Positions 32,952 to 51,102 are shown, counted from the stretch's first letter. The stretch is 64,000 bases of DNA from an uncultured Desulfarculaceae bacterium (GCA_964514105.1 CAZEPJ010000001.1:34448-98447); one strand, 5' to 3'. Notes: generated from the sequence alone by a model not told the origin. Translations and numbers: made by a program.

Positions 32952-33914
32952 TCATGTGCGGCGGGCGGCCTCCACGGCCCTGGGGTCCGAGGCTGGCCCT
33001 GTCCCTTCCTTCTGCAATCGCTCCAGCATGGGGCCCATGATCTTGCGGATGCGGCTCTGCATGGTCCTGTATCGGAAGCGTTCGGCCTCGGACAGAGGCT
33101 GCTTGGGCGGGCCCATGGGGAAGCCGCGCACCTCCAAGGCGATCTTGAAGCCCAGGGGGAAGGGCAGGGCGGTGCAGGCCCGGATGAGCAGCAGAATGGA
33201 TAACTGGAGTTCCCGGGCCCGATGGTGGTCCCCGGCCTTCCAAGCCCGATAGATCCCTGTCATGACCTCGGGAAGGATCCCGGCCATGGCCACCATGCAC
33301 CCGCTGGCCCCCATCATGAGGGCCGGAAAGAAGATGTCCTCGCGGCCCGACATGAACGCCATCTCCTCCCCAGCCAGGCGCACCTTATCCATGAAATGGA
33401 CCAGGTCCACCATGCTCCCGCTGCTCTCCTTGAGGCCCACCACATTGGGCCGTCTGGAGAGTCGTTTGACCACGTCGTAATGGAGGGGTTGTGTGAACAG
33501 CGGGATGTTGTACAGGATGATGGGGATGTCCGTCGCATCGGCGATGGTCTCGTAGTACTTCTCCACCATCTCGTCGGAGATGCGGTAGAAATACGGGGGG
33601 GCCACCACCACGGCCGCGCACCCCAGGGCCCTGGCCTTGCGGGCCAGAAAGATGGAATGGGCCGGGTGGGACGTCCCGATGCCGGGGGTGACCGGGACCC
33701 GCCCCCGGGCCTGATCCGCCACGATCTCCATGACCCGGACCCGTTCCTCCTGGGTCATGTGGACAATCTCGCCCACGGAACTCACCGGAAACAGGCCGTC
33801 CACCCCTCCCTCGATCTGGAATTCCACCATGCGCCGCAGGACATCCTCGTCCGGGGCGCCGTCCTCCCGGAAGGGCGTCAGCATGGCCACGTACACGCCT
33901 TGGGGTCGAAACAT
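32952..33914 (-). CDS. DapA-family class I aldolase (dihydrodipicolinate synthase/N-acetylneuraminate lyase family), likely 2-keto-3-deoxy sugar-acid aldolase or dehydratase
   Basis: The TIM-barrel family pattern GGVDGLFPVSSVGE with the Schiff-base Lys region NVVGLKESSG. 320 aa. Confidence 0.75.
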   Translation of the reverse strand: MFRPQGVYVAMLTPFREDGAPDEDVLRRMVEFQIEGGVDGLFPVSSVGEIVHMTQEERVRVMEIVADQARGRVPVTPGIGTSHPAHSIFLARKARALGCAAVVVAPPYFYRISDEMVEKYYETIADATDIPIILYNIPLFTQPLHYDVVKRLSRRPNVVGLKESSGSMVDLVHFMDKVRLAGEEMAFMSGREDIFFPALMMGASGCMVAMAGILPEVMTGIYRAWKAGDHHRARELQLSILLLIRACTALPFPLGFKIALEVRGFPMGPPKQPLSEAERFRYRTMQSRIRKIMGPMLERLQKEGTGPASDPRAVEAARRT

Positions 33915-33917
33915 GGG

Positions 33918-35747
33918 CTACCTCCGATCAAGATTCAGTTCCCGGAGCTTCCGGTCCGTGGGAACCCCCCGGGCATCCCATCCGCGGACCGTGTAGTACT
34001 CCCTCAGGAGGGGGGCCAGGTCCACCACCCTGCCTCGACAGGGGCCTTCGGCCAGGGGCTGGGTGAGGAATCTCCGGGGCAAGGTGTCCTGGTCCGCGGT
34101 GAGCCCTTCCCGCAGGTTGAAAAGCCGGACCAGGTTGTTCACGCGCTCGCCGGCCACCATGATGGCCTCGGCGGACGAAAGGCCGTCCCTCCCCGTGGCC
34201 GCCCCGAGGAACTGGGTGATCTGTCGCATGCCCAGGGCGGGCATGGCGAACAGGCACATGCCGGCGGCGTTCAAGACCGTGAAGAGATCCTGCTGGGTCT
34301 TGACGAACTCGGCCTTGAACTCCTTGGAAAACGGGTCCATGCGGTTCTCCGAGGAGAGCAACTCCGCGCCGATGGGCCATGCTCGAAGGTGGCAGCCCCC
34401 TCGGTCGCTGGTGGCGTAGGCCAGGGCCATGCCCGTGGAGCCGCGGGGATCGTACGCCGGGAGCTCCAGGCCCTTGACATGCATGGCCAACTCCTCGGAG
34501 CCCCGGATGCGCCGGGAAAGCCGCCTCGTCCCTTCTCCCCACAAGGCCCCCGGGCCTTCCCCGCGCCCCATGAGGTGGATGGCCTGGATCATGGCCTCAT
34601 GGTCGCCGAAACCCATGGAGAAGCCCACCTCCTCCGGGGCCAGGAGGCCCCGCTGGAGGCACTCCATGAGAAAGCCGATGGTGTTCCCCACGGAGATGCC
34701 GTCCAAGCCGTACAGGTCGCAGAGATACTCCGCCTGGATGATGGCACCGATGTCCGTGTTCTCGCACTGGGCCCCGAAGGACCAAACGTCCTCGTATTCG
34801 GGCCCCTCCACTACGGTCCCCTGGTACTTACCCCGGGGAACCCGGGCGATCTTGCTGCAGTGGATCGGGCATCCGAAACAGGCCCGATGGCGCACATAGT
34901 AATCACGGATGGACTCCTCGTTGACCATGGAGGCACCCGCGAAAACGCCCTTCTGGAAGTTCCGGACCGGATGGATGCCGGACTCGTTCATGCAGGAAAG
35001 GATCACGTTGGTCCCGTAGTCCTGGCGTCCCCCCCCGGCCTCGGGGTCGATGGCCAGCTCGTTCATGGCCTCCCGCCAAGCCCGCATGAACCCATGCGGA
35101 TCGGCCAGGGACACGGCTCCCGTGCCCCGCGCGGCCACGGCCTTGAGGTTCTTGGACCCCATGACGGCCCCGGCCCCACCCCTTCCGAAGGCCCTGTACT
35201 CGGAGATGATGTTGGCCAGGAGGACCCGTTTCTCCCCGGCCTCTCCGATGGCCGCCACCCGAAACTCCTCCCCCAGGCGCTCCTTGATGGAGCTGTGGAC
35301 CGTGAACGTGTCCCTGCCCCAGAGGGAATCCGCCGGCTCCAGCCGACCCGCGCCGTCCTCGATGACGAGCAGCGCGGGGGCTGGGGCCCGGCCGTGAACG
35401 ACCAGGGCGTCCCATCCGGCCATCTTCAACTCCGGCCCCAGAAAGCCGCCGCAGTTGGCGTCCAGCCATAACCCGGTGAGTGGGCTCTTGGTGCACACCA
35501 CGCAGCGACCGCTGGCGGGCGCCAGGGTGCCCGTCAGCGGACCCGTGGCCAGGACCAGGACGTTGTCCTCCGAAAGGGGATCGCACCCTGGGGCAAGCCG
35601 CTCCGTGAGGAGCTGGGCCCCCAGACCCTTGCCGCCGATGAACGCATCGGCCCACACCGGGTCCAGGGGGATGGTCGAGAGGGTCCCGGCCGTGAGGTCC
35701 ACGTCGAGAATCCGGCCCGCATAACCGTGCCAGGGGGGAATGGACAT
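33918..35747 (-). CDS. aor: Aldehyde:ferredoxin oxidoreductase (tungsten/molybdopterin AOR family)
   Basis: The start was reset to MSIPPWHGYAGRIL, preceded by AGGAGG. Strong matches to Pyrococcus AOR: GPLTGTLAPASGRCVVCTKSPLTG, GRGGAGAVMGSKNLKAVA, EGPEYEDVWSFGAQC, ELPAYDPRGSTGMALAYATSDRGGCH. Confidence 0.9.
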   Translation of the reverse strand: MSIPPWHGYAGRILDVDLTAGTLSTIPLDPVWADAFIGGKGLGAQLLTERLAPGCDPLSEDNVLVLATGPLTGTLAPASGRCVVCTKSPLTGLWLDANCGGFLGPELKMAGWDALVVHGRAPAPALLVIEDGAGRLEPADSLWGRDTFTVHSSIKERLGEEFRVAAIGEAGEKRVLLANIISEYRAFGRGGAGAVMGSKNLKAVAARGTGAVSLADPHGFMRAWREAMNELAIDPEAGGGRQDYGTNVILSCMNESGIHPVRNFQKGVFAGASMVNEESIRDYYVRHRACFGCPIHCSKIARVPRGKYQGTVVEGPEYEDVWSFGAQCENTDIGAIIQAEYLCDLYGLDGISVGNTIGFLMECLQRGLLAPEEVGFSMGFGDHEAMIQAIHLMGRGEGPGALWGEGTRRLSRRIRGSEELAMHVKGLELPAYDPRGSTGMALAYATSDRGGCHLRAWPIGAELLSSENRMDPFSKEFKAEFVKTQQDLFTVLNAAGMCLFAMPALGMRQITQFLGAATGRDGLSSAEAIMVAGERVNNLVRLFNLREGLTADQDTLPRRFLTQPLAEGPCRGRVVDLAPLLREYYTVRGWDARGVPTDRKLRELNLDRR

Positions 35748-35763
35748 GGGGGGGCGTTCCTCC

Positions 35764-36153
35764 TTACGGTCCCAGTTTCTCAATGGCGCGTGTGGGACAC
35801 CATTTGGCGCACAGAAACGCGCCGCCGCAAGTGTCGCACACAAGGGGGAGGGGGGCTGAGGGATCCAGCGCGATCCCCTGGACCGGGCACGCCTCGGCGC
35901 AGCTCCCGCATCCGTTGCACAGGTCTTCCCGCAGGTGCACCCAGCCGTCCCAGCTCAGGGCACCCGTGGGGCAGGCCCCCATGCACTCGCGCTCGGGGCA
36001 GGCCAGGCACACCCGCAGGGACGGCTCCTCGGGCCAGCGGGCCGCGACTTGAAGGCGGGAGCGCTTGGGGTTGTTCTGGGCGAAATGCGCCCACGCACAG
36101 ACCTGCATGCAGATCTGGCATTCCGTGCAGCGCGAAGGGGTGAGTTGGAACAT
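35764..36153 (-). CDS. Four-[4Fe-4S]-cluster ferredoxin (AorA-like electron-transfer subunit)
   Basis: Start at MFQLTPSRC preceded by GGAGG. Four Cys motifs (CxxCxxCxxxC, CxxCx4CxxxCP, CxxCxxCxxxCP, CxxCx5CxxxCP). It lies 16 nt upstream of aor. Confidence 0.7.
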   Translation of the reverse strand: MFQLTPSRCTECQICMQVCAWAHFAQNNPKRSRLQVAARWPEEPSLRVCLACPERECMGACPTGALSWDGWVHLREDLCNGCGSCAEACPVQGIALDPSAPLPLVCDTCGGAFLCAKWCPTRAIEKLGP

Positions 36154-36222
36154 GGAAGAGCGCCTCCAACGCAAGCCCGGGGTCGAGCCCCTGCACCCCC
36201 GGGGGCCTGAACGTCCGTTTCT

Positions 36223-36235
36223 TCATTTGAAATGA
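36223..36235. promoter_or_regulatory. Candidate operator palindrome upstream of the ferredoxin-aor operon
   Basis: TCATTTGAAATGA has perfect 6-bp arms around 1 nt. It sits in a local AT-rich patch about 80 nt upstream of the ferredoxin ATG. Confidence 0.3.
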
Positions 36236-36301
36236 CACTATCGCATTGTTCGGCCGCGGGCTCAAGGGCAAAGGCGGCCAAGGCGGGCGGGTCCACCCCC
36301 G

Positions 36302-37804
36302 TCATCCGTGCGCAAGGCGGCGGCTTCGCCAGAGGAAGACGATGGGGCTTAGCCAGAGGAACAGGGTCACTACCCCCAGACAGGCGCTCACCGGCCTGGA
36401 GAAGAACGCCGTCAGATCCCCCTGGCTCTTGATCATGGAGATCATGAAGGAGTCCTCGACCATCCTCCCCAGGACCAAGCCCAGGACCGCGGGGGCCACG
36501 GGGATGTCGTTGGCCTCCATGAGGAACGCCAGGACGCCGGTGGCCAGCATGATCCCCACGTCGAATGTGGAGTTGTTGATGGCGTACGATCCCACGATGC
36601 AGAACATGAGGATGATGGGCATGAGCACGTTTCGGGGGAGCCGCAGCATCTGGCAGCAGGCCTTGATGGCCAGGTAGCCCAGGGGGATCAGGAGAAGGTT
36701 GGAGAGGATAAAGGCGATGTACACCGCGTAGAGGATCTCCGGAGTTCGCTCGAAGATCATGGGCCCCGGGCGGACGCCCTTCATGAAGAGCACGCCGATG
36801 ACGATGGCCGTGATGGAATCCCCGGGGATGCCGAACACCAGGGCGGGGACCCATGCGCCACCCAGGGCCGCGTTGTTGGCGGTGCCGGCATCCACGATTC
36901 CCTCGATGTGGCCGGTTCCGAACTTTTCGGGCTCCTTGGAGAAGCGTTTGGCCAGGCCATAGGTGATCCAGGCCGCGATGTCGGCCCCGGCCCCCGGGAG
37001 GATGCCGATGAAGGTGCCGATGGCCCCCGATCGGACCACGTTGACCTTGTATTTCCGGAGGGTGCGCCACATCCCCGAGTAGATGTGGAAGGTCTTGACC
37101 TCGCAGACCATGGCGCCCAGGCCCGCTGCGGAGACGTTGCGCATGACCTCGGAGAGGCCGAACATCCCGATCATGGCCGGAATGAAGTCGATGCCGTTGA
37201 GCAGCTGGACGCTGCCCAGGGTGAACCGGGGGTAGCCGAACGTCTCGGACAGGCCCACCGTGGCCATGAACAGCCCGATCAGGAGAGAGACCAGGCCATT
37301 GAGCAACGAGCGCTGGGTCACCAGGACCGCGCAGCTCAATCCGATGCACCCCAGCCAGAAGTACTCGAAGCTGGTGAACTTCATGGCCACCTCGGCCAGC
37401 ATGGGGGCCAGGACGATGAGGACTGCGGCCCCCATGAGGCCGCCGATGACCGAGAAGAAGACGTCCACGCCCAGGACGTAGCTGGCCTGCCCCTTCTGGG
37501 TCATGGCGTACGAGTCTTCCACGTAGGCGGCAGACGAAGGGGTACCAGGGATGCGGACCAGCGCCGCCGGGATGTCTCCGGCGAAGATGGCCATGGCCTC
37601 CATGGTCACAATGGCTGCCAGGGCCGGCACCGGGTCCATGAAGAAGGTGACGGGCACGAGCAGGGCGGTGGCCATGGTGGCCGTGAGACCCGGGATGGAG
37701 CCCACGAAAAGCCCGTACACCGCGGACAGGAGGATGACCAGGAGCACATACGGCTGGGCCATCAGGGCCACTGCAGTGCAGACGTTCTCCAGCATGGTCA
37801 CCAA
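36302..37804 (-). CDS. tctA: Tripartite tricarboxylate transporter large permease TctA
   Basis: 500 aa with a multi-TM TctA-family sequence pattern. Confidence 0.85.
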   Translation of the reverse strand: MVTMLENVCTAVALMAQPYVLLVILLSAVYGLFVGSIPGLTATMATALLVPVTFFMDPVPALAAIVTMEAMAIFAGDIPAALVRIPGTPSSAAYVEDSYAMTQKGQASYVLGVDVFFSVIGGLMGAAVLIVLAPMLAEVAMKFTSFEYFWLGCIGLSCAVLVTQRSLLNGLVSLLIGLFMATVGLSETFGYPRFTLGSVQLLNGIDFIPAMIGMFGLSEVMRNVSAAGLGAMVCEVKTFHIYSGMWRTLRKYKVNVVRSGAIGTFIGILPGAGADIAAWITYGLAKRFSKEPEKFGTGHIEGIVDAGTANNAALGGAWVPALVFGIPGDSITAIVIGVLFMKGVRPGPMIFERTPEILYAVYIAFILSNLLLIPLGYLAIKACCQMLRLPRNVLMPIILMFCIVGSYAINNSTFDVGIMLATGVLAFLMEANDIPVAPAVLGLVLGRMVEDSFMISMIKSQGDLTAFFSRPVSACLGVVTLFLWLSPIVFLWRSRRLAHG

Positions 37805-38256
37805 CCCCAGAGGCCCCAGGGCAGGGGGACCCGGAGCATCTTGCCGAAGAGCAGGTAGATGCCTGCGGTGACGAAAAACGCCATGAGGAGGCTCCAGAGG
37901 GTGCCCACCCGAAGCCCCTTCATCATGACCGCGAGGAGGAGAGAGGAGGTGATCAGAAAGCCCAGGGGCTCGGCGAGCACGATGTACGCGACCGGGGCCA
38001 GGAGGACCAGGGGGATGTTGGCGCGCCCCAGCCCTCCCACGGCCCCGCCGTCCACCTTGAAGAAACGCTCACCCCGCCGCACCCCCCGGATTACCAGGCC
38101 GACGCCGGCCAGGATCATGAGCACGGCCAGCACGCTGGGATACGCCGCAGGGCCCGGATGTCCCGGCTCCAGGGCCGGGAACTTGCGCATGTGAAGGAGC
38201 GCCCCCGCGCTGACCAGGATGAGGAAGGTTCCGATGGCCGAGTCACTGAACCGCAT
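37798..38256 (-). CDS. tctB: Tripartite tricarboxylate transporter small membrane protein TctB
   Basis: 152-aa 4-TM protein between tctC and tctA that overlaps the tctA start. Confidence 0.7.
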   Translation of the reverse strand: MRFSDSAIGTFLILVSAGALLHMRKFPALEPGHPGPAAYPSVLAVLMILAGVGLVIRGVRRGERFFKVDGGAVGGLGRANIPLVLLAPVAYIVLAEPLGFLITSSLLLAVMMKGLRVGTLWSLLMAFFVTAGIYLLFGKMLRVPLPWGLWGW

Positions 38257-38273
38257 CTGACCTCAAGGCCTGC

Positions 38274-38320
38274 GGCGTCCCTTCCCCCCCGCCCGCCGGC
38301 GGAGTCGGCGAAGGGACGCC
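38274..38320 (-). other. Intercistronic GC-rich stem-loop between tctC and tctB
   Basis: GGCGTCCCTTC ... GAAGGGACGCC is a perfect 11-bp inverted repeat with a 25-nt loop. It sits between the tctC stop (38332) and the tctB start (38256). Confidence 0.4.
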
Positions 38321-38331
38321 GCCATGGAGGC

Positions 38332-39303
38332 TCACTTGGCGATGCCGGCCGCCTTCATGACCTCCCCGTTCTCCTTGTCGGCGGCGGCCAGGGCCTGGGC
38401 AAAGGCCTTGGCGTCCAGGTAGTAGATGCCGAAGCCACGGCTTTCCATGAACTCCACGAATTCCTTGCTCTTGACGACCTTGTCCATGGCCTTTTCGAGA
38501 ACGGCCACCACGGCCGGCGGCGTCCCCTTGGGGGCCGCCACCCCGCGCCATGCCCCGCAGGTCCAGTTGATGCCCAGCTCCTTGAGGGTGGGCACGTCGG
38601 GGAACTTGGGGTCCCGCTTGTCCGCCATGATGGCCAGGGGCCTCACCTTCTTGGCCTCGATGAGGGTGGCCGCCTCGGGGAGGGAACAGGTGCTCATGTC
38701 AATGCCGCCGGCGACCATGTCCTGCAGGGCCGGGGCCGCACCCTTGCTGGGGATCCACTGAATGGCCGTGGCAGGGAGGCCCACCGCCTTGAGCCAGCCG
38801 CCCATGGCCAGATGCCAGATCCCGCCCAGCCCCGTGCCCGAGTTCTTGAGCTTGCCCGGGTTCTCCCGGACGTATTTCTCCAGATCCTTATAGGTCTTCC
38901 ACGGGGAATCCGCCAGCACGTTGATGCCCGCGGGGTCGAAGTTCACCATGCAGATGGGGGTGATGTCCTTGTACGTCAGTTCGGTGAGGCCCATCCAGTG
39001 CATCATGGTCAACTCCACCGTGGGCATGCCGATGGTGTACCCGTCTGGCTTCTCCGTGGCGATGGCCGTGTGCCCCACGGCGCCGCTGCCGCCGGTCTTG
39101 TTCACCACGTTGACCGGCTGCTTGAGCTCCTTCTCCAGCAAGGTGGCGATAATGCGAGAGACCGCATCGGTGCCCCCTCCGGCCCCCCAGGGACAGACAA
39201 AGGAGATGGGACGAGTGGGATAGTCCGCGGCCATGGCGGGGGCCGCCCCCGCACAGACGGACAGGACGACTGCCAGCATCCGTGCAACCTTCATTCTTCT
39301 CAT
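38332..39303 (-). CDS. tctC: Tripartite tricarboxylate transporter substrate-binding protein TctC (Bug family)
   Basis: GGGAGG RBS and a signal peptide ending AAPAMAADYP. The Bug-family motif PWGAGGGTDAVSR is present. Confidence 0.85.
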   Translation of the reverse strand: MRRMKVARMLAVVLSVCAGAAPAMAADYPTRPISFVCPWGAGGGTDAVSRIIATLLEKELKQPVNVVNKTGGSGAVGHTAIATEKPDGYTIGMPTVELTMMHWMGLTELTYKDITPICMVNFDPAGINVLADSPWKTYKDLEKYVRENPGKLKNSGTGLGGIWHLAMGGWLKAVGLPATAIQWIPSKGAAPALQDMVAGGIDMSTCSLPEAATLIEAKKVRPLAIMADKRDPKFPDVPTLKELGINWTCGAWRGVAAPKGTPPAVVAVLEKAMDKVVKSKEFVEFMESRGFGIYYLDAKAFAQALAAADKENGEVMKAAGIAK

Positions 39304-39622: not shown

Positions 39623-40615
39623 ATGACGCCGTACGACGTGGTGACCTTCGGGGAGGCCATGGTCCGGCTGTCGCCGCCGGGGTTCCAGCGGGTCGAGCAG
39701 GCCCGCAGCCTGGATGTGGAGGTAGGGGGGGCGGAGCTCAACGTGGCCGTGGGGATGGTGAGGCTGGGGCTGCGGGGCGCATGGATCTCCAAGCTCCCGG
39801 AGAATCCCCTGGGGCGATTGATCGGCGGGCGGGCCCGGGCCACGGGCGTGGACTGCTCCCACATCATCTGGACCCCCCGGGGGCGTGCCGGGCTCTACTT
39901 CTTCGAGTTCGGGGCATCGCCCCGGCCGTCCAGCGTGCTTTACGACCGCGCCGGTTCGGCCATGAGCACCATCGGGCCCGGGGAGATCCCCTGGGTCGAG
40001 ATCCTCCGAGGGGCGCGCCATTTCCACGTCACCGGGATCACCCCGGCCCTGAGCCCATCGGCGGCCCAAGCCACCCTGGAGGCCCTCAATGCCGCCAGGG
40101 CCGCCGGCTGCACGGTTTCGTACGACATCAACTACCGGCAGAAGCTCTGGGAGCCCGGGGAGGCCCGGCGGGTCCAGGAGCCGCTGCTGGCCCACGTGGA
40201 CATCCTGTTCACCAACGAGCACGACCCGCGCGTGGTCCTGGAGGCGGCGGCGGGCGATCCCGGGGAACTGGCCGGGGAGCTGGCTCGGCGGTACGGCTTG
40301 CGCATCGTGGCCGTAACCGTCAAGACCGGGCGCACCCTGTGGAGGGACCAATGGACGGCCGTGGCGTACGGGGACGGGGCCGTCTTTCGCGATGGAACGT
40401 ACGACGTGGAGATCGTGGATCGCCTCGGCGCCGGGGATGCTTTCGCAGCCGGGTTTCTGGCCGTTTGGCTGAGAACAAGGGATGTGGCCCGGGCTCTTCG
40501 CTGGGGCAACGCCCTGGCCGCCCTCAAACACACCTTCCCGGGGGACTTCGCCTGGGCGAGCCCCACGGACGTGGAGGACGTCCTTTCGGGGGCAGGACCC
40601 CGGCTCTCCAGATAG
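39623..40615 (+). CDS. kdgK: 2-dehydro-3-deoxygluconokinase (PfkB family)
   Basis: 330 aa with the PfkB sugar-kinase pattern: N-terminal VVTFGEAMVRL and the C-terminal ATP-binding region GAGDAFAAGF. Confidence 0.75.
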   Translation: MTPYDVVTFGEAMVRLSPPGFQRVEQARSLDVEVGGAELNVAVGMVRLGLRGAWISKLPENPLGRLIGGRARATGVDCSHIIWTPRGRAGLYFFEFGASPRPSSVLYDRAGSAMSTIGPGEIPWVEILRGARHFHVTGITPALSPSAAQATLEALNAARAAGCTVSYDINYRQKLWEPGEARRVQEPLLAHVDILFTNEHDPRVVLEAAAGDPGELAGELARRYGLRIVAVTVKTGRTLWRDQWTAVAYGDGAVFRDGTYDVEIVDRLGAGDAFAAGFLAVWLRTRDVARALRWGNALAALKHTFPGDFAWASPTDVEDVLSGAGPRLSR

Positions 40616-40626
40616 GGGTGGCGACC

Positions 40627-43172: not shown

Positions 43173-44429
43173 TCAGAAGGGGAGCAGGTCGCCCACGTCG
43201 TCGAACGCCATGTCGCATGCGGGTTCCTCGACCGTGAGGTCCTCCCGGCCTTGCATCTCCTCGAGATAGGCCTCCGAAACCATCACCTCGGCCAGGTCGA
43301 TGGTGCTGCGGATGCGGATCACCCGGGCGTCCTCGGGCCGGATGTATCCGATGGTCTGCAGGGCTTCCTCCAAAGCCACGCGGTCCGTCTGGAATCCGAT
43401 GGGGACCGCGGCCAGATACGGGCGGTTTCCCGTCATGGTGTTGATCCGGGTGATCTCTGGATCGATCTTCCCGATCAACCTGGCGTGGGCGTATTCCGCG
43501 AATCCGACCCCGGTGGCGTTCCCCTTGGTCTCGGGAGTCAGATCGCGGACATAGATGCGGGTGACCTTGGGGTATTCGTCCGGGGCGGCATAATGGACGT
43601 AGTACTTCCGGCCGATGACGTTGCTGTCCATGCCGGTCCCGCTGATGTTCTTGCCCATCTGGTCCACGATGAGGAGATCCACGCGCTGGAAAGGAAGCCG
43701 GGGGAGCCACTTGCGGGCCATCACCAACAGCTCCTTTTCCCGCTCCAGAAACCGGGGCGGCTCCAACGCCTCGATGAACGCCGGCTCGTGGGCGGCGTTC
43801 TCCAGGATGGCGAGTCCGAGGAGTATCCTGCACTTCTCAATGACCGTCTGGGCGACCGATCGGATGATGTGGTCGAAACTGTAATGAACGAAGGCCTGAT
43901 GGTAGACCTTGGCCCCCTCGTGCTTTCCCAGGCCGATGAGCATCATCTTGTGGAGGCCGCTCTCGATCTCCCCCGTGAAGTCGGTGTGCGGACGCACCCG
44001 CCCCACCACCAGGACGTGGTCCGCCTCGTGGGCGCACTTGTCGAAGAAGACGGGGATGCCGTCCTCGGTGGTCCCGACCTGCACGACCTCCATGGAGGCC
44101 CGGATGGGGGCGCCGGTATAGGACTCGGTGACCCCGTATCCCTCGACGATGGCCCTTTGGCCCTGGGCGGTCCCTCCGCCATGGCTGCCCATGGCCGGGA
44201 CGATGAACGGGTGTGCCCCCCGGGCCTTCACTTCCTCCACCAGGCTGCGGATGATGAGCGCGATTTGGGCGATGCCCCGGCTTCCCACGGGGATGGCCAC
44301 GGACTGTCCCGGTCGGATCCGGTGGAAGGCGGACTGCGTCGCGAGGGTCTGGCGGACCGCTGCCGCCACGTCGGCCACACGCGGGGCCTCAAAGCGCTGG
44401 GCAATGCGCAACATCCTGGGGTACGGCAT
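43173..44429 (-). CDS. LarA-like (nickel-pincer-dependent 2-hydroxyacid racemase/epimerase family, DUF2088) protein
   Basis: Start at MPYPRMLRI preceded by GGAGGAA. Length (about 420 aa) and overall pattern resemble the lactate racemase N-terminal-domain family. No larBCE genes are in this window. Confidence 0.5.
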   Translation of the reverse strand: MPYPRMLRIAQRFEAPRVADVAAAVRQTLATQSAFHRIRPGQSVAIPVGSRGIAQIALIIRSLVEEVKARGAHPFIVPAMGSHGGGTAQGQRAIVEGYGVTESYTGAPIRASMEVVQVGTTEDGIPVFFDKCAHEADHVLVVGRVRPHTDFTGEIESGLHKMMLIGLGKHEGAKVYHQAFVHYSFDHIIRSVAQTVIEKCRILLGLAILENAAHEPAFIEALEPPRFLEREKELLVMARKWLPRLPFQRVDLLIVDQMGKNISGTGMDSNVIGRKYYVHYAAPDEYPKVTRIYVRDLTPETKGNATGVGFAEYAHARLIGKIDPEITRINTMTGNRPYLAAVPIGFQTDRVALEEALQTIGYIRPEDARVIRIRSTIDLAEVMVSEAYLEEMQGREDLTVEEPACDMAFDDVGDLLPF

Positions 44430-44866
44430 GGGTTCCTCCGGCAATGAATGGTAAGGAAGGGAATTCAATCCCGCTGTCCCGGGCGCGGTGCCGGCAGCCC
44501 GGCGTCAGGCCGACGGACCGTCCAGCAGGTCCCCTCGATAGTATGACAATCCTCCGGCCTTGGCAACGGCGAGGGCGGTCCCATATCCTTTCCGTGGCGG
44601 ATGGCTGGTGAGCGTGACGGGGCCATCTCCGTGCGCTCGACGCCTTCACGATCACCCCCTGACAGCTCGCAGCCCGGCCAACGGCGGGGTTGCCCCCTTC
44701 CGTCACAGGCAGGATCTCCCTCGTTCAAGGGCGAAGTCCCGCCTTTGGCGAGGCTGCCTGCTCGCTTGTCATGGGCGCCCCGTCGCGCTGCTGCCGACGC
44801 AGGGCTCCGGGACTGGGGACTGCCCTCGTACCTGACGGGCTTCCTGGGGGCGGCAGGTGACGTCCC

Positions 44867-44895
44867 TTGACAAATCCAAGTCGTTGTAAGTATGT
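44867..44895 (+). promoter_or_regulatory. Candidate sigma70 promoter with a ~200-nt leader upstream of the sugar ABC operon
   Basis: TTGACA, 17 nt, then GTATGT (or a TAAGTA -10). It lies within a 640-nt ORF-free region between the larA-like and SBP genes. Confidence 0.3.
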
Positions 44896-45105
44896 TCGTG
44901 GCACGCGCGCGGTTGAAGCGACCCGTTCCTCGTCCATCAGCCCCTTTGCTTCCGAGCGAGCTGTCAAGGCGCGTGCATTCATCCTCCGTCAGTTCAACGG
45001 ACGCGCGAGGCGTCGTTGGCCCCCCGGCCGCTTGGGAAGGGAGGTGGACCAGGGCCTCGGGGGGCCATGGAAACAACCTCAAACAACTCCAGGAGGTGAA
45101 GATCC

Positions 45106-46473
45106 ATGGACGAGAGAGAGCTGAAGCTGTCGAGAAGGGATTTCATCAAGACCGCGGGGGCGGGGGTGGCGGGGGCCACGCTCCTGTCCGGGTCGCTGGG
45201 ATCGATGACGGGAACGGCCCTGGCGGCGGCAGGTCCCCCCAACCTGGCCGTGGAGAAGGGGGCCGCGCTCAAGGTCCTGCGCTGGAGTCCCTTCGTGGCG
45301 GCGGACAAGGACATTTGGGAGCAGAACACCCGGAAATGGGAGCAAGCCACGGGCGGCAAGGTGGTCACCGAGTATCTCTCGTGGGAGGACGTCCGGCCCA
45401 AGGCCGCCATGGAGGCCTCGGTGGGGGCGGGCCACGACATCGTCCTGGGTTGGCATGACGACCCCTTCCTGTATCCGGACAAACTCCTGGATGTGACGGA
45501 CGTCTGCGCGTATCTCGGCGGCAAGTACGGCGGTTGGGAGGACGTGGCCGTCAAGTACGGGGTCAACCCCAAGACGGGCAGATGGATCGACATCCCCATC
45601 GGCGGGCCGGGCCAGGCCATCTGCTACCGCAAGAGCTGGGTCAACGAGGCGGGCTACCCCGAGATGCCGCTCCAGATGGACAAGTTCATCGACTGCTGCA
45701 AGAAACTCAAGGCCAAGGGGCATCCCGTGGGCTTTGCCCTGGGCCACGCGGTGGGGGACGGCAACAACTGGGCCCACGGGTTTCTCTGGGCCTTCGGGGG
45801 CAAGACCGTGAACAAGGACGGCTCGCCGGCCATCAACAGCAAGGAGACCCGAGCGGCCCTGGCGGCCATGAAGGACCTGTACGACAACGCCATGATCCCG
45901 GGGTGCGCTTCCTGGCTCGATCCGCACAACAACAAGGCGTACCTGGCCGGGGAGATCTCGGCCACCAACAACGGGATCAGCATCTACTACGCCGCCAAGA
46001 AGGATTTTCCCCAGGTCGCCGAGGATACATTCCACCAGTATCCGCCCCGGGGGCCCTCGGGCAAACCCACGGAGCTCCACCTGTTTGACCCGGCCTTCAT
46101 CTTCAAGCACACGCCCTATCCCCAGGCCGCCAAGCACTATCTGATGTTCATGATGGAGAAGGAGCAGGCGGGCCCGTGGATCAACGGGATGCTGGGCTAC
46201 GTGAGCCCGGCCCTCAAGGCGTACAAGGAACTTCCCGTGTGGACCTCGGACCCCAAGCACACGGTGTACCGCGACTGCATCGCCAACATGCTCTGGACCG
46301 GATATGAAGGCCCCATCGGTCCGGCCTCGGCTGCGGTCATGGCCGAGTACGTGGTGGTGGATCTGTTCGCCAACGTCTGCGCCAAGGGCATGAGTGCGGA
46401 CAAGGCCATCGAGGTGGCTGAGAGGGCCATCGTCAAGGCGTACAAAGTCAAGAAGGCGGCCACCAAGGGATAG
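45106..46473 (+). CDS. ABC transporter substrate-binding protein, carbohydrate CUT1 family, Tat-exported
   Basis: Twin-arginine signal SRRDFIKTAGAGVAGATLL. Family 1 extracellular solute-binding protein pattern with an AGGAGG RBS. Confidence 0.85.
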   Translation: MDERELKLSRRDFIKTAGAGVAGATLLSGSLGSMTGTALAAAGPPNLAVEKGAALKVLRWSPFVAADKDIWEQNTRKWEQATGGKVVTEYLSWEDVRPKAAMEASVGAGHDIVLGWHDDPFLYPDKLLDVTDVCAYLGGKYGGWEDVAVKYGVNPKTGRWIDIPIGGPGQAICYRKSWVNEAGYPEMPLQMDKFIDCCKKLKAKGHPVGFALGHAVGDGNNWAHGFLWAFGGKTVNKDGSPAINSKETRAALAAMKDLYDNAMIPGCASWLDPHNNKAYLAGEISATNNGISIYYAAKKDFPQVAEDTFHQYPPRGPSGKPTELHLFDPAFIFKHTPYPQAAKHYLMFMMEKEQAGPWINGMLGYVSPALKAYKELPVWTSDPKHTVYRDCIANMLWTGYEGPIGPASAAVMAEYVVVDLFANVCAKGMSADKAIEVAERAIVKAYKVKKAATKG

Positions 46474-46547: not shown

Positions 46548-47477
46548 TTGTCGGTCAGGGTGCACGAGCAGGTCGCGGGGGCCACGGGGATGCGGGGGCG
46601 CCTTGCCCGGGCGCTGGACAACCCGACGATCCTGGGCATCCTGTTCGTGGCGCCGGCGGAGCTCCTCCTCCTGGTATTTCTGGCATATCCCTTTTTCCTG
46701 GGCCTGTGGCTCGGGTTCACCGACACGGTGGTGGGGCGGGAGGGGAACTTCATCGGGGTCGAGAACTACGCGGACCTGCTGGACGACCCGTCCTTCTGGC
46801 TCACGGTGTTCAATACATTTCTCTATACCGTGGTGGCCGTGTTCTTCAAGGCCGTCTTGGGCATCGGGCTGGCCGTCGTGCTCAACCGGGACTTCCGGTC
46901 CAAGGGGCTCATGCGGGCCGTCGTGCTGCTGCCCTGGATCATCCCCACGGCCCTGAGCGCCATTTGCTTCTGGTGGCTCTACGACGCCACCTTCAGCGGC
47001 ATCTCCTGGGTCCTCATCCGGCTGGGCCTCATCGATACCACGATCAACTTCTTGGGCGATCCGTGGAACGCCCGCTTCTCCCTCATCGCGGCCAATGTGT
47101 GGCGGGGCATCCCGTTCTTCACCATCGGGCTCCTGGCGGGGCTGCAGACCATCAACCCGGATCTGTACGAGGCCGCGGACCTGGACGGGGCCACCTCCTG
47201 GTCCAAGTTCCGGCGGATCACCCTGCCGTTGATCACGCCGCTCTTGGCCGTGGTGACGGCCTTCTCCACCATCTGGACCTTCGCCGATTTCCAGCTCATC
47301 TGGGTCATCACCAAGGGCGGACCCGCTGGGGCCACCCACATCTTCGGGACCCTGTCCTTCCAGCGGGCCATGGCAGGAGGACACTTCGGCGAGGGAGCGG
47401 CCATCTCCAACTTCATGCTTCCCATTCTCGTTGTATGCGTGCTCGTCAGCTTCAAATATCTGCGGAGGGAGGACTGA
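46548..47477 (+). CDS. Sugar ABC transporter permease (MalF/UgpA-like)
   Basis: The EAA-loop motif region is present, with 6-TM topology. Confidence 0.85.
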   Translation: MSVRVHEQVAGATGMRGRLARALDNPTILGILFVAPAELLLLVFLAYPFFLGLWLGFTDTVVGREGNFIGVENYADLLDDPSFWLTVFNTFLYTVVAVFFKAVLGIGLAVVLNRDFRSKGLMRAVVLLPWIIPTALSAICFWWLYDATFSGISWVLIRLGLIDTTINFLGDPWNARFSLIAANVWRGIPFFTIGLLAGLQTINPDLYEAADLDGATSWSKFRRITLPLITPLLAVVTAFSTIWTFADFQLIWVITKGGPAGATHIFGTLSFQRAMAGGHFGEGAAISNFMLPILVVCVLVSFKYLRRED

Positions 47478-47481
47478 CGGT

Positions 47482-48321
47482 ATGGTGGGCGAGAGGCTCG
47501 GCTCCAGGCTCCTCAAGTTCTACCTCCCCCTCGTCCTGTACCTGTTCTTCCTGCTCTTCCCCTTCTACTGGATGATCAACACGGTTTTCAAGTCGGACAA
47601 GGAACTCTACGACCTGGGGCTCAATCCCTTTCTCATCCACAGCCCCACCCTGGGAAACATCGTCCACCTCTTTACCCAGACCATCTTCCTCCAATGGATG
47701 GGCAACACCTTCTTCGTGGCCCTCACGGCCACGGCCCTTTCCCTGACGGCCAGCCTCCTGGCCGCCTACGCCATCCAGCGGCTCCGGTTCAAGACCTCCC
47801 AGTCGACGGGCGTGGCCATCTTCCTGAGCTATCTCGTCCCCCAGACCATCCTGTTCATCCCGCTGGCGCACATCATCTTCAAGCTCAGGCTGTGGGACTC
47901 CCTGTGGTCCCTGGTCCTGACCTACCCCACTTTTCTGGTCCCGTTCTGCACCTGGCTCCTCATGGGATACTTCAAGTCCATCCCCAGGGAGATGGAGGAG
48001 TGCGCCATGATCGACGGGGCCAGCCGGGCCAAGATCTTCCGGAAGATCATCCTGCCCCTGTGCCTGCCGGGGATCCTCTCGGCGGGGATATTCTGCTTCA
48101 CCTTGTCCTGGAACGAGTACATCTACTCCCTGGCCTTCATCTCCACCACCTCGAGCAAGACCGTCCCCATCGGACTCGTGACCGAACTGGTCCGGGGCGA
48201 TGTATATCACTGGGGCCCCCTGATGGCGGGGGCGCTGTGCGCATCGGTCCCCGTGGCCCTGGTCTACTCCTTCTTCGTGGAGCACTACGTGGCCGGCATG
48301 ACAGGGGCCCTCAAGGAGTGA
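47482..48321 (+). CDS. Sugar ABC transporter permease (MalG/UgpE-like)
   Basis: Internal ATG after a GGAGGGAGG RBS. The EAA motif is present, as in MIDGASRAKIFRKIILPL. Confidence 0.85.
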   Translation: MVGERLGSRLLKFYLPLVLYLFFLLFPFYWMINTVFKSDKELYDLGLNPFLIHSPTLGNIVHLFTQTIFLQWMGNTFFVALTATALSLTASLLAAYAIQRLRFKTSQSTGVAIFLSYLVPQTILFIPLAHIIFKLRLWDSLWSLVLTYPTFLVPFCTWLLMGYFKSIPREMEECAMIDGASRAKIFRKIILPLCLPGILSAGIFCFTLSWNEYIYSLAFISTTSSKTVPIGLVTELVRGDVYHWGPLMAGALCASVPVALVYSFFVEHYVAGMTGALKE

Positions 48322-48328
48322 CGCCGAC

Positions 48329-49429
48329 ATGGCAGAAGTGCGGCTGGAGAGTGTGTCCAAGCGTTTCGACGACGTGGTGGCCGTCAACGAGTTCAGCCTG
48401 ACCATAGCGGACAAGGAGTTCGTGGTGCTGGTGGGTCCCAGCGGCTGCGGGAAGACCACGACGCTGCGGATGGTGGCGGGGCTGGAGTCCATCACCAGCG
48501 GGAAGGTCTTCATCCAGGATCGCCTCATCAACGACGTCCCGGCCCGGGATCGCAATATCGCCATGGTCTTCCAGAACTACGCCCTGTACCCCCACATGAC
48601 CGTGTACGAGAACATGGCCTTCGGCCTGGAAATGCGAAAAGTCCCCGGGGAGGAGATCCGGCGGCGCGTGGAGGATGCGGCCGACATCCTGGACATCGGC
48701 CATCTCCTGGCCCGAAAGCCCAAGCAACTCTCGGGCGGCCAGCGACAGCGCGTGGCAGTGGGACGCGCCATCGTGCGCAAGCCCCAGGTCTTCCTGTTTG
48801 ACGAACCCTTGTCCAATCTGGACGCCAAGCTCCGGGTGCAGACCCGGGTCGAGCTGAAGAAGCTTCACGAGCGTCTGGCCACCACGGCCATCTACGTGAC
48901 CCACGATCAGGTGGAGGCCATGACCATGGGCGACCGCATCGTGGTCATGAAGGACGGGCTCATTCAGCAGGTGGGCGCGCCCCTGGAGCTGTACAACGGC
49001 CCGACGAACAGGTTCGTGGCCGGGTTTCTGGGAAGCCCTTCCATGAACTTCTTCGAGGCGGAGCTGGTGGGCTCTGCGGGCGGCCTGTCGGTTGTGCGGA
49101 GGCAGGTGCGCATCGACCTGCCGCCGAAGGCAGCCGGAAGGCTCCGCGGCAGTCCGGGCAGGAGGGTCATCGTCGGCATCCGGCCCGAAGACCTCCCCAT
49201 GGCCCCGGCCCATGTGCCGGGCAGGACAATCCAGGCCACGGTGGAGGTGGTGGAGCCCGTCGGCAGCGAGACGTACGTGGATGCCAATGCAGACGGGCTT
49301 TCCCTCATCGCCGGCGTGGGGAGAAACACGGCAGTGCAGCCCCACCAGGACGTGATCCTGGAGCCCATTGCGGAGCGCATCCATCTGTTCGACCTCCAGT
49401 CCGAGACGGCACTCCTGGGACGTCCCTGA
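48329..49429 (+). CDS. Sugar ABC transporter ATP-binding protein (MalK/UgpC-like)
   Basis: Walker A GPSGCGKTT, signature LSGGQRQR, Walker B LFDEPLSNLD, and a C-terminal TOBE-like domain. Confidence 0.9.
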   Translation: MAEVRLESVSKRFDDVVAVNEFSLTIADKEFVVLVGPSGCGKTTTLRMVAGLESITSGKVFIQDRLINDVPARDRNIAMVFQNYALYPHMTVYENMAFGLEMRKVPGEEIRRRVEDAADILDIGHLLARKPKQLSGGQRQRVAVGRAIVRKPQVFLFDEPLSNLDAKLRVQTRVELKKLHERLATTAIYVTHDQVEAMTMGDRIVVMKDGLIQQVGAPLELYNGPTNRFVAGFLGSPSMNFFEAELVGSAGGLSVVRRQVRIDLPPKAAGRLRGSPGRRVIVGIRPEDLPMAPAHVPGRTIQATVEVVEPVGSETYVDANADGLSLIAGVGRNTAVQPHQDVILEPIAERIHLFDLQSETALLGRP

Positions 49430-49569
49430 GACGCAAGCCGCCGAGGCAAGCCGGGCCGCAATCCACGGGAAGACACGGGGGTTCGTGCGCCGGGGAGGGG
49501 CGATGTGTGCAACGAGCCCCCGGCCGTGAAGGGCCATGACTGCCAGCCATTGCCATATGAGGAGGACCC

Positions 49570-51102
49570 ATGAGATCCGCCAGCCAAATGCCGACCATCC
49601 GCCTGCACGCCCGGGACAATGTAGTCGTGGCCAGGGTGGCCTTGGAGCCGGGCTCTGCCGTCCCGGAGGAGGCCTTGACCTGCCGGGATCCCGTTCCCCC
49701 GGGCCATAAGGTGGCCACGGCGGGCATTGCCCGGGGCGCTGCCGTGCGCAAATACGACCAGATCATCGGCTTTGCCACCCGAGACATCGAGCCCGGCCAG
49801 CACGTTCACACCCACAATCTGGCCGTGGGGGCCTTTGAGAGGGAGCACGACTTCGGAGCCGAGGCCCGCCCCACGCCCCTGGTGCCCGAGGCCCGGCGGG
49901 CCCGGTTCCAGGGGATCGTGAGACCGGATGGGCGGGTGGCCACGCGCAACTACGTCGGCGTCCTGCCCACAGTCAACTGCTCGGCCACGGTGGCTCGGGC
50001 CATCGCCGCCGCCTTCGAGGGGGACGCCCTGGCCCCCTTTCCCAACGTGGACGGGGTCGTGGCCCTTCCCCATGGGGAGGGGTGCGCCACGGCGGGCAGA
50101 GGGGAGAACTTCGAGCGGCTGCAGCGGACCTTCGCCGGATGGATCCGACACCCCAATTTCGCTGCGGTCATCCTGGTGGGCCTGGGATGCGAGGCCAACG
50201 AGGCCGGCCTCCTCATGTCCTGCATGGGGTTTCAGGCAGGCCCGTTCACTCATGTGATGAACATCCAGGAGCACGGGGGGACCGGGGCCACGGTGGCCGA
50301 GGCCGTGGGTCGCATCGGCCGCATGCTTCCCGACGTCAACCGCATCGAGCGCCGGCCCGTGTCGGCCGAACACCTCATCCTGGCTCTGGAGTGCGGAGGC
50401 TCCGACGCCCACTCGGGGATCACGGCCAACCCGGTCCTGGGGGCGGCGGCCGATCTCCTGGTGCGCCACGGCGGCACGGCCGTGCTGAGCGAGACGCCGG
50501 AGATCTACGGGGCCGAACATCTGCTGACCCGCCGGGCCGCAAGCCGGGAAGTGGGGGAGGCCCTGGTCCGCCGGATCCGGTGGTGGGAGGAACACACGGC
50601 CCGGCTCGACGGGGAGATGGACAACAACCCGACCCAGGGAAACAAGGCCGGGGGGCTCACCACCATCCTGGAGAAATCCCTGGGGGCCGTGGCCAAGGGC
50701 GGTACGACCCGCCTCATGGCGGTCTATGAGTACGCCGAGACCATACGAGGCCGTGGGCTGGTGTTCATGGACACGCCGGGGTACGATCCGGTCTCCGTAA
50801 CGGGCATGGTGGCGGGGGGGGCCAACGTCATCGGATTCACCACGGGGCGGGGCTCGGCCTTTGGCTGCAAGCCGGTGCCGTCCATCAAGCTGGCCAGCAA
50901 CACAGCCCTGTACGAGCGCATGACAGGAGACATGGACGTGAACTGCGGGGTCATCCTGGATGGAACGTCCAGCGTGGAGGAGCTGGGGGAGGCCGTCTTT
51001 CGCCTCATTCTGGATGTGGCCTCGGGCCGGCGCACCAAGAGCGAGATCCAAGGTTACGGGGACCTGGAGTTCATCCCCTGGCGCACCGGGGCCCAGATGT
51101 GA
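49570..51102 (+). CDS. UxaA/GarD-family sugar-acid dehydratase (altronate or galactarate dehydratase-like)
   Basis: 510 aa. N-terminal SAF domain (IRLHARDNVVVA...GHKVAT) plus the C-terminal D-galactarate dehydratase/altronate hydrolase domain. Confidence 0.75.
   Translation: MRSASQMPTIRLHARDNVVVARVALEPGSAVPEEALTCRDPVPPGHKVATAGIARGAAVRKYDQIIGFATRDIEPGQHVHTHNLAVGAFEREHDFGAEARPTPLVPEARRARFQGIVRPDGRVATRNYVGVLPTVNCSATVARAIAAAFEGDALAPFPNVDGVVALPHGEGCATAGRGENFERLQRTFAGWIRHPNFAAVILVGLGCEANEAGLLMSCMGFQAGPFTHVMNIQEHGGTGATVAEAVGRIGRMLPDVNRIERRPVSAEHLILALECGGSDAHSGITANPVLGAAADLLVRHGGTAVLSETPEIYGAEHLLTRRAASREVGEALVRRIRWWEEHTARLDGEMDNNPTQGNKAGGLTTILEKSLGAVAKGGTTRLMAVYEYAETIRGRGLVFMDTPGYDPVSVTGMVAGGANVIGFTTGRGSAFGCKPVPSIKLASNTALYERMTGDMDVNCGVILDGTSSVEELGEAVFRLILDVASGRRTKSEIQGYGDLEFIPWRTGAQM

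Follow-up and report, generated by a model that had tools for sequence, protein, structure and literature searches.

What is the task of an aldehyde oxidoreductase (AOR) whose gene lies 3 bp from that of an aldolase-family enzyme, on the same strand, in a block of DNA that also encodes dehydratases, a kinase and two importers? The question is raised by an 18-kb region (positions 32952-51102) within a 64,000-nucleotide stretch, here called the window, from an uncultured Desulfarculaceae bacterium (GCA_964514105.1, CAZEPJ010000001.1:34448-98447). The region holds 16 genes in five transcription units, one of which ends in worS, worL and dapAL, the genes for an iron-sulfur subunit, the AOR large subunit and a DapA-like protein (DapAL). 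The reading favored here, with a probability of about 0.55, is a sugar-acid catabolic island built around worS-worL-dapAL, in which an aldolase step followed by ferredoxin-linked aldehyde oxidation would operate beside a KdgK-Eda branch. Genes were called from third-position GC (the window is ~66% GC) and then checked with Pfam and NCBIfam. All gene families named in a preliminary description of the region were located in this way, among them the aldolase-family gene said to be co-operonic with the AOR gene, whose adjacency to it proved to be conserved.

The AOR large subunit (WorL) is of the AOR sensu stricto type. It scores 494-497 bits against the Pyrococcus furiosus AOR (PfAOR) structure 1aor and against 9mqx_D, and its 494 bits to PfAOR compare with 244 to WOR5/ASOR. 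Thr243, Glu313, Tyr427 and His448 (PfAOR numbering) are all kept, as are the four cysteines of the [4Fe-4S] cluster; together with its domains, WorL thus has the features listed for aldehyde-oxidizing tungsten oxidoreductases (WOR/AOR; catalytic residues from PMC13328260). An identity as GAPOR was ruled out by the NF040818 score of 47.9 bits (cutoff 1300).

Four Cys motifs, predicted to bind four [4Fe-4S] clusters, make up the small subunit (WorS), whose entire length aligns with the Fe-S subunits of WOR5 (6x1o_B) and Aromatoleum AOR (8c0z_C), with 9mqx_E and with BamC. The motifs are kept in 19 of 20 homologues; in the other, from locus L022, the scan found three motifs, and all 16 cysteines are present. 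The preliminary description had seen here a "4-cluster ferredoxin" co-operonic with the AOR; the four motifs and the shared operon hold, and the identity is better given as a WorS-type AOR subunit. The Pfam scan found no WorN-like gene, for an FAD/NAD subunit, in the worS-worL-dapAL operon. Class II WORs are defined as WorL plus a WorS with four [4Fe-4S] motifs and no FAD/NAD subunit (PMC13328260), and because the Fe-S protein aligns full-length with Fe-S subunits of WOR complexes, the pair is assigned, from its sequence, to Class II. The Class II enzymes Caldicellulosiruptor bescii GOR and P. furiosus WOR5/ASOR (PMC13328260) share with it a large pterin subunit, a small subunit that carries four [4Fe-4S] clusters, as well as the lack of an FAD/NAD subunit, with ferredoxin the expected acceptor in both cases. 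The island WorL differs from these enzymes in belonging to the AOR sensu stricto group rather than to the GOR, GAPOR or WOR5 groups, and worL differs from Class II genes in its strict linkage to a DapA-like gene. Tungsten would be the metal of WorL and ferredoxin its acceptor; neither tupABC nor cofactor genes were found in the 64-kb window. Reduction of ferredoxin is feasible because the acid/aldehyde couple has a low potential.

The partner of this enzyme, DapAL, has the domain (PF00701, 219 bits), the Schiff-base lysine and the catalytic tyrosine (Lys162 and Tyr135, aligned to DapA Lys161 and Tyr133) of the DHDPS/NAL superfamily of class I aldolases, and its predicted structure is a TIM barrel (pLDDT 84.5). 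It falls below every NCBIfam equivalog cutoff, including that for DapA itself (TIGR00674, 170.8 bits, cutoff 206.15). The YNxPxR motif of DapA contains an arginine that binds aspartate semialdehyde and is present in every DapA structure aligned; in the invariant YNIPLFTQP motif of the DapAL family, the position of Arg138 (E. coli numbering) is occupied by phenylalanine. Among E. coli paralogues, DapAL is closest to YjhH (145 bits, 32% identity), followed by NanA (135), YagE (134) and, most distantly, DapA (111). On these three grounds an identity as true DapA was ruled out, and with it one of the two objections that the preliminary description had raised against its own proposal. More than 2,200 homologues are found in metagenomes, and the subfamily, with >2,000 metagenomic members, is routinely mis-annotated as DapA.

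Several features point toward the aldolases of the YagE/YjhH type: the best E. coli match (YjhH), a 3-residue insertion after the Schiff-base lysine that is common to DapAL, YagE and YjhH, and the adjacency to IlvD-like genes described below; the margins over NAL and DHDPS are small. The same is true of a Foldseek search of the PDB, in which the top match of the DapAL model is YagE, by a small margin over DHDPS and NAL; beyond this slight preference, structure prediction and Foldseek do not separate aldolase, synthase and lyase. DapAL is a putative Schiff-base aldolase of keto-deoxy acids. Orthology to the archaeal bifunctional KD(P)G aldolase is lacking (NF040954, 104.7 bits, cutoff 390), and the term "archaeal-style", used at first for this locus, stands as analogy only.

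A DapA-superfamily protein beside an aldehyde-oxidizing enzyme might instead serve an aldarate or Weimberg-type route. DapAL would then be a KdgD-like decarboxylating dehydratase that converts 5-keto-4-deoxy-glucarate or 2-keto-3-deoxypentonate to 2-oxoglutarate semialdehyde, which the AOR would oxidize to 2-oxoglutarate, giving an anaerobic counterpart of the GarD/GudD-KdgD-semialdehyde dehydrogenase route. The known gene layout for the KdgD route, as in ycbCD-gudPD-garD of Bacillus subtilis, likewise places a DapA-family gene, an aldehyde-oxidizing enzyme and GarD together, and the island resembles it in having a GarD-superfamily dehydratase, a DapA-superfamily enzyme and an aldehyde-oxidizing enzyme at one locus. 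The best characterized relative of the UxaA-like protein is indeed GarD (299 bits to 6u7l; in E. coli, 283 bits and 36% identity to GarD versus 261 bits and 33% to UxaA), the tripartite tricarboxylate-type importer of the island suits di- and tricarboxylates, and GarR-like and HpcH/GarL-like genes occur near DapAL in loci L030, L031 and L094. The catalytic tyrosine of KdgD (PMC13398020) is also present in DapAL, but the KdgD models are matched at only 101 bits (TIGR03249, cutoff 374) and 117 bits (PRK03620, cutoff 278). In AbKdgD the side chain of Thr54 binds the C6 carboxylate (PMC13398020); DapAL has an invariant valine, Val47, at that position. In KdaD-type dehydratases glutamate replaces the conserved catalytic tyrosine of the superfamily (PMC13398020), and Tyr135 of DapAL rules out that type. 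Both KdgD and KdaD structures are absent from the Foldseek top 50, DapAL is more like YjhH and YagE, and KdgK-like and Eda genes, for which an aldarate route has no need, are often immediate neighbors of DapAL. The island departs from the KdgD route also in using an AOR and not an ALDH as its oxidizer. Overall, an aldarate route is judged unlikely, although it is the main rival of the favored reading.

The strongest evidence that DapAL and the AOR work together comes from gene order. An alignment-based scan of species-representative genomes for DapAL gave 42 loci, 38 of them informative; nearly all are in Desulfobacterota (Desulfarculaceae, Syntrophobacterales, Desulfobacterales, Desulfosarcina and the Olavius Delta-1 symbiont), and three are in Thorarchaeota or other archaeal metagenome-assembled genomes (MAGs). 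Desulfarculaceae MAGs come nearest to the window, with 73-86% identity in several island proteins, and this lineage is its probable source. Of the 38 informative loci, 24 have the WorS-AOR pair directly upstream of DapAL. In the reverse test, an AOR alignment was run against metagenome contigs from which redundant contigs were removed: AORs at least 52% identical to that of the window have DapAL immediately downstream on the same strand in 45/45 informative non-redundant loci, and those no more than 48% identical have it in 0/12. Within the sampled data, this AOR clade is always paired with DapAL. By virtue of this reciprocal synteny, functional coupling of DapAL and AOR is strongly backed. 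The claim that the AOR oxidizes the aldehyde of the aldolase through ferredoxin gains from this coupling, while the proposed identity of that aldehyde as glyceraldehyde or glycolaldehyde is not established by it.

Some loci depart from the usual arrangement. In L022 (1452-3134) DapAL follows WorS by ~390 bp with no AOR gene between them, which reflects either a deletion or an assembly artefact. In L121 and L125 (~4795-7779) the gene directly upstream of an AOR of a more distant clade (46-47% identity), where WorS would otherwise lie, is of the DapA family and 36% identical to DapAL; pairing of AOR with DapA-family proteins may have arisen more than once.

The genes around the WorS-AOR-DapAL triad recur as well. 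UxaA-like proteins are found at 13-19 loci, MalK/ABC proteins at 12-16, IlvD-like proteins at 11, KdgK-like proteins at 10-13, Eda at 6-7, LarA-like proteins at 4-5 and Tct proteins at 3. The order TctCBA-WorS-AOR-DapAL is kept on one strand in the nearest relative (L005/L052); KdgK(-Eda)-WorS-AOR-DapAL occurs in L012, L013 and L029, and KdgK-like relatives adjoin the triad in L005, L012, L013, L022, L029, L054, L063 and L117. WorS-AOR-DapAL-Eda-UxaA is the order in L077, L084 and L103, followed in L103 by an FGGY kinase gene. IlvD-like genes adjoin DapAL co-directionally in L033, L034, L037 and L114, directly upstream of it in the first three. Locus L114 places on one strand IclR, a split UxaA, GlcD-like and GlcF-like proteins, WorS, AOR, DapAL, an IlvD-like protein, a second DapA paralogue and a LarA-like protein, with a weak KdgK-like match (31% identity) at its end. 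The block SBP-permease-permease-MalK-UxaA is kept in L031 and L033-L035 (SBP, substrate-binding protein). Other recurrent neighbors are IclR regulators, Zn-ADH, SDR and AKR proteins, TRAP transporters, HpcH/HpaI aldolase, an HpaB/AbfD-like protein, D-2-hydroxyacid dehydrogenase and a GlcD/GlcF-like FAD oxidase with a CCG protein; the last two could process the acid product.

Such recurrence bears on the simplest alternative, that the genes are mere neighbors: a biosynthetic IlvD and DapA-like protein, an AOR that acts as general aldehyde detoxifier, and separate operons for the rest. The ilvD equivalog cutoff is passed by the island's IlvD-like protein, aldehyde detoxification is the task given to most characterized Class I-III WORs (PMC13328260), and the GC content of the island equals that of its flanks. 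This explanation is nevertheless very improbable, given that the AOR-DapAL adjacency holds in all 45 loci of one AOR clade and in none of 12 outside it, that DapAL lacks Arg138 and scores below the dapA cutoff, and that 11 loci, differently arranged, have an IlvD-like gene next to DapAL or to the ABC-UxaA block. Since the same families recur around DapAL in dozens of independent loci, the clustering is not due to chance, and the repeated company of dehydratase, kinase, Eda and transporter families at the same unit makes it credible that the island serves one sugar-acid function. The comparative synteny suggested as a check in the preliminary description thus speaks in its favor, and the island is one instance of a widespread modular sugar-acid system.

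The two dehydratases of the island are of different kinds. The IlvD/EDD-family protein has the family membership first given to it, and more narrowly it falls in the genuine DHAD clade, where it passes the IlvD models (TIGR00110, 673 bits, cutoff 618; PRK00911, 697 bits, cutoff 644). Its best PDB matches are DHADs (466 and 451 bits), as against 342 bits for L-arabinonate dehydratase and 232 for the YjhG/YagF clade. Relatives of 52-80% identity lie beside DapAL in 11 loci. This DHAD-clade enzyme probably works on sugar acids. The gene upstream of it encodes a LarA-like protein, present as first described, which matches the model for LarA group 22 (507 bits, cutoff 400) and agrees in its motifs AMGSHGG, RPHTDF and GLGKH with group-22 sequences and the residue table of the PMC7583248 supplement; it has the catalytic His pair and the NPN-binding Lys/His of LarA proteins. 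Group 22 is there listed as of "unknown function", with a COG0129 association in 30% of genomes. The other dehydratase, the UxaA-like protein, has the UxaA/GarD superfamily domains and four invariant Fe-ligand cysteines (C137, C172, C207 and C275), by which that superfamily is recognized (PMC6336799). It is an orthologue of neither GarD nor UxaA, and its TIGR03248 (GarD) score is 351.8 bits against a cutoff of 730.85. In L114 (1404-2884) and L094 (10230-11387), the N-terminal SAF domain is missing from the triad's UxaA/GarD-like partners; in L114 a separate 107-aa open reading frame (ORF) precedes a 386-aa large subunit, a layout like that of two-subunit SuyAB, with the four Fe-ligand cysteines kept.

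For the phosphorylated branch, "KdgK plus Eda" had been proposed. Eda is confirmed by TIGR01182 (187.5 bits, cutoff 156.05). The kinase is of the PfkB family and lies below the cutoffs of both KDG (2-keto-3-deoxygluconate) kinase models, with 327 bits (cutoff 440) for the haloarchaeal KDG/KDGal kinase and 64 (cutoff 400) for bacterial KdgK; it scores 336 bits to the kinase part of a KHG/KDPG aldolase-kinase fusion.

A substrate other than a sugar acid could be handled by the same logic of aldolase plus AOR, either a sulfonated sugar acid, with sulfolactaldehyde oxidized to sulfolactate, or 4-hydroxy-2-oxo acids of other origin. The sulfo-Entner-Doudoroff pathway combines an IlvD/EDD dehydratase, an aldolase and an aldehyde-oxidizing step. 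The Class II enzyme PfASOR handles aliphatic sulfonates (PMC13328260), but WorL is nearer to PfAOR, as its scores indicate. Sulfo-lyase and sulfite-handling genes are absent from the island, and SuyAB lacks the four Fe-ligand cysteines (PMC6336799) that the UxaA-like protein keeps. Their retention, also in the split L114 and in the L094 versions, rules out a SuyAB-type sulfolactate sulfo-lyase. For other 4-hydroxy-2-oxo acids one may point to some Desulfobacteraceae (L031, 4530-12277; L035, 3167-12736), where DapAL occurs without AOR beside an IlvD-UxaA-ABC block and is flanked by an IOR-like 2-oxoacid:ferredoxin oxidoreductase, an HpaB/4-hydroxybutyryl-CoA-dehydratase-like protein, acyl-CoA dehydrogenase, HpcH/HpaI aldolase and MaoC hydratase. 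These CoA-ester genes hint at a CoA-dependent fate for keto-deoxy acids in the two loci. Most recurrent neighbors of DapAL are, on the other hand, ordinary sugar or sugar-acid enzymes and IclR/KdgR-type regulators, and a substrate outside the sugar acids is considered decidedly unlikely.

In the favored reading, that of sugar-acid catabolism, sugar acids would be imported by the TctCBA and ABC systems. LarA group 22 may invert C2 of a 2-hydroxy acid and so make the substrate for the DHAD-clade IlvD-like dehydratase, and either this enzyme or the UxaA/GarD-like dehydratase would form a 2-keto-3-deoxy sugar acid. Two exits would then be available. In the semi-phosphorylative one, the KdgK-like kinase and Eda would yield pyruvate and glyceraldehyde 3-phosphate. 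In the non-phosphorylative one, DapAL would split the keto-deoxy acid to pyruvate and a small hydroxy-aldehyde, which could be glycolaldehyde if the acid is a pentonate, glyceraldehyde if it is a hexonate, or lactaldehyde if it is a 6-deoxyhexonate. WorL-WorS would oxidize the aldehyde at once to the acid, with low-potential electrons passing to ferredoxin rather than to NAD(P), and the tight linkage of worL and dapAL fits a need for removal of a reactive aldehyde. A pentonate and glycolaldehyde, as in a Dahms-like route, would be favored by the IlvD-DapAL adjacency, which mirrors yagE-yagF and yjhH-yjhG of E. coli; the GlcD/GlcF-like and D-2-hydroxyacid dehydrogenase neighbors would fit further oxidation of glycolate or lactate, and the KdgK-like neighbors fit KDG and glyceraldehyde.

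Two known systems invite comparison. In the branched Entner-Doudoroff pathway of the archaea Thermoproteus tenax and Sulfolobus (PMC2063504), as proposed for the island, a DapA-superfamily aldolase acts on a 2-keto-3-deoxy sugar acid, KDG kinase is encoded in the same neighborhood so that phosphorylated and non-phosphorylated exits coexist, and the aldehyde is oxidized by an aldehyde oxidoreductase and not by a classical NAD(P) dehydrogenase. The island differs in its host, a mesophilic bacterium of the Desulfobacterota, in its non-orthologous DapAL, in a separate Eda for the phosphorylated branch, in dehydratases of the IlvD/EDD and UxaA/GarD families where the archaea have an enolase-superfamily gluconate dehydratase, and in the joining of AOR and aldolase genes in one unit; glucose dehydrogenase, like glycerate kinase, was not seen in the island. 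The YagE-YagF and YjhH-YjhG pairs of E. coli (Dahms-type D-xylonate utilization) each consist of an adjacent DapA-family aldolase and IlvD/EDD dehydratase, as do the four IlvD-DapAL loci above. DapAL is, however, only ~30-32% identical to YagE and YjhH, the island dehydratase belongs to the DHAD clade rather than with YjhG/YagF, and glycolaldehyde in E. coli is handled by an NAD-dependent AldA encoded elsewhere, whereas the AOR of the island shares a unit with DapAL.

It is important to set out what weighs against sugar-acid catabolism by this scheme. The pathway as a whole rests entirely on genomic inference. DapAL lies at nearly equal distance from several DHDPS/NAL subfamilies (130-139 bits), so that aldolase chemistry is only a candidate function, the IlvD-like protein could be a housekeeping enzyme by its equivalog score, and a galactarate dehydratase as nearest characterized relative of the UxaA-like protein fits an aldarate route. 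The window yielded neither a sugar dehydrogenase nor a lactonase. Glycerate kinase, which would return glycerate to glycolysis if glycerate is formed, was found neither there nor among neighbor families seen in at least 5 loci, although it may be encoded elsewhere. Finally, the archaeal loci L016, L017 and L024, one of them in a 2.58-Mb chromosome assembly, carry the triad at 61-64% identity with no sugar-acid genes near it: it stands alone, among TetR or HxlR regulators, a PEMT-like methyltransferase and, in L016, a GSDH-family dehydrogenase. The sequences suggest that the triad was transferred between domains.

These solitary archaeal triads, devoid of catabolic genes, would also suit a reversed, biosynthetic flow, in which the AOR reduces an acid with reduced ferredoxin and DapAL condenses the resulting aldehyde with pyruvate. 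AORs are reversible and reduce acids in acetogens, and class I aldolases are reversible too. The bacterial unit, however, lies amid importers, dehydratases, kinases and IclR-type catabolic regulators, with no downstream biosynthetic genes seen, and the reverse direction is scarcely credible; the flow would be catabolic.

The arrangement of the island is given in Table 1. In the first unit tctC-tctB-tctA, a tripartite tricarboxylate-type carboxylate importer (36302-39303), is followed after a 148-bp gap by worS, which is 16 bp from worL. The kinase and eda, separated by 2-11 bp depending on the Eda start, form the second unit; the LarA-like and IlvD/EDD genes form the third, the ABC importer the fourth, and the UxaA/GarD dehydratase gene, 140 bp beyond malK, the fifth. 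Both uptake systems have the families predicted for them. The twin-arginine motif (S/T)RRDF(I/L)K of the ABC binding protein (window 45106-45240) is kept in 6/6 homologues, including those of L012, L031, L033, L034 and L047; Tat export, as predicted from this motif, is a family trait of the CUT1 SBP and is unusual among bacterial ABC binding proteins. A PDB search with the SBP returned only weak matches to generic sugar-binding proteins, with no clue to the substrate.

Table 1. Positions of the genes and the divergent intergenic region in the window.
Feature	Position	Strand	Domains or models	Remarks
dapAL	32952-33914	-	PF00701	DapA-like (DHDPS/NAL superfamily) class I aldolase-type enzyme, 320 aa; last gene of worS-worL-dapAL
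worL	33918-35747	-	AFOR_N + AFOR_C	AOR large subunit, 609 aa
worS	35764-36153	-	Fer4 families	WorS-type electron-transfer subunit, 129 aa
tctA	36302-37795	-	PF01970	
tctB	37798-38256	-	PF07331	
tctC	38332-39303	-	PF03401	
kdgK-like	39623-40615	+	PF00294	PfkB-family KDG/KDGal kinase-like
eda	40618-41277	+	PF01081 (152.6 bits)	KDPG/KHG aldolase; start GTG 40618 or ATG 40627
ilvD-like	41301-42974	-	ILVD_EDD_N + ILV_EDD_C	IlvD/EDD-family dehydratase, DHAD clade
larA-like	43173-44429	-	NF052515	LarA homologue, group 22 (nickel-pincer-cofactor 2-hydroxyacid isomerase)
intergenic region	44430-45105	.		676 bp, divergent, larA-like-ilvD / ABC-uxaA
Tat-signal SBP	45106-46473	+	SBP_bac_1/8 + TAT_signal	CUT1-type ABC importer
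permeases	46548-47477 and 47482-48321	+	BPD_transp_1 twice	CUT1-type ABC importer
malK-type ATPase	48329-49429	+	ABC_tran + OB_MalK + TOBE	CUT1-type ABC importer
uxaA-like	49570-51102	+	SAF + GD_AH_second + GD_AH_C	UxaA/GarD-superfamily sugar-acid dehydratase

No DNA-binding domain was found in any island protein with Pfam and NCBIfam, and an Rfam scan of the whole window matched zero families, in agreement with the initial statement that no regulator is visible. Promoter and terminator scans gave counts no higher than the shuffled expectation. Three of the four sigma-70-like matches of the island fall, on both strands, in the divergent intergenic region, a count likewise not above that expectation; this region, which has no Rfam match and whose ORF has no Pfam match, probably holds promoters or operators. 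The word "island" is apt for gene content and not for composition: the lack of a GC anomaly rules out a horizontal-transfer island by that measure. Both flanks consist of housekeeping genes: upstream GroES/EL and DUF6178, downstream an M20 peptidase and an Opp-like ABC system.

Some further observations concern the surroundings. The Opp/Dpp-like ABC and M20 peptidase genes (window 52285-59297) have counterparts of the same families after a DapAL-Eda-UxaA-FGGY cluster in L050 (7875-11181), either by coincidence or because the synteny is conserved. A 147-aa protein without Pfam match (window 51787-52230, minus strand) borders the island on the right; in the nearest relative a homologue of 44% identity lies upstream of tctC in divergent orientation (L005 1970-2353; L052 from ~1333), and the protein may be part of the system, possibly as regulator or accessory protein. 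The UxaA-like gene is closely followed downstream by a short ORF (window 51407-51817, plus strand) that matches only positions 201-277 of 283, the last 77, of MoCoBD_2 (E = 1.5e-9), the molybdopterin cofactor-binding domain of xanthine-dehydrogenase/aldehyde-oxidase enzymes, and that resembles a remnant of the large subunit of a Mo-hydroxylase; the glyceraldehyde oxidoreductases of Sulfolobus belong to that family (PMC4726530). Upstream of the island lie genes for a BadF/BcrA-type activator ATPase (15944-16735, plus strand), a 2-hydroxyglutaryl-CoA-dehydratase D-component-like protein (23113-24429, minus) and a cytochrome bd oxidase (19343-22164, minus), a set typical of an anaerobe that tolerates some oxygen.

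Neither an AOR-DapA-like cassette nor a bacterial AOR-dependent non-phosphorylative route was found described in full-text literature searches, which does not prove that no description exists, and a term search of the WOR survey (PMC13328260) found no mention of aldolases. The locus differs from the known systems in four respects: the bacterial mesophilic host, the strict linkage of WorLS to a distinct DapA-like subfamily, the partnership of a DHAD-clade dehydratase with LarA group 22, and the separate Eda branch. It can be proposed tentatively, at somewhat less than even odds, that worS-worL-dapAL is an unrecognized, self-contained catabolic cassette that gives one AOR clade its role, the ferredoxin-linked oxidation of the DapAL aldehyde, and that Desulfobacterota and Asgard (Thor) archaea appear to have exchanged. 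In the 2026 classification (PMC13328260) a physiological role is defined for only 5 of 92 tungsten-oxidoreductase clades, and the strict cross-phylum linkage supplies a concrete, testable role for one more. If the sugar-acid reading is true, mesophilic anaerobic bacteria have a non-phosphorylative route hitherto assigned to archaea, and the pair of LarA group 22 and DHAD-clade dehydratase would be a new epimerase-dehydratase entry step. The locus offers leads to the function of two orphan groups, the DapA-like subfamily and LarA group 22. Sugar acids are common products of the decay of plant and algal polymers in sediments; the system would show how sulfate reducers and syntrophs draw low-potential ferredoxin electrons from them, and how such anaerobes avoid a build-up of toxic hydroxy-aldehydes.

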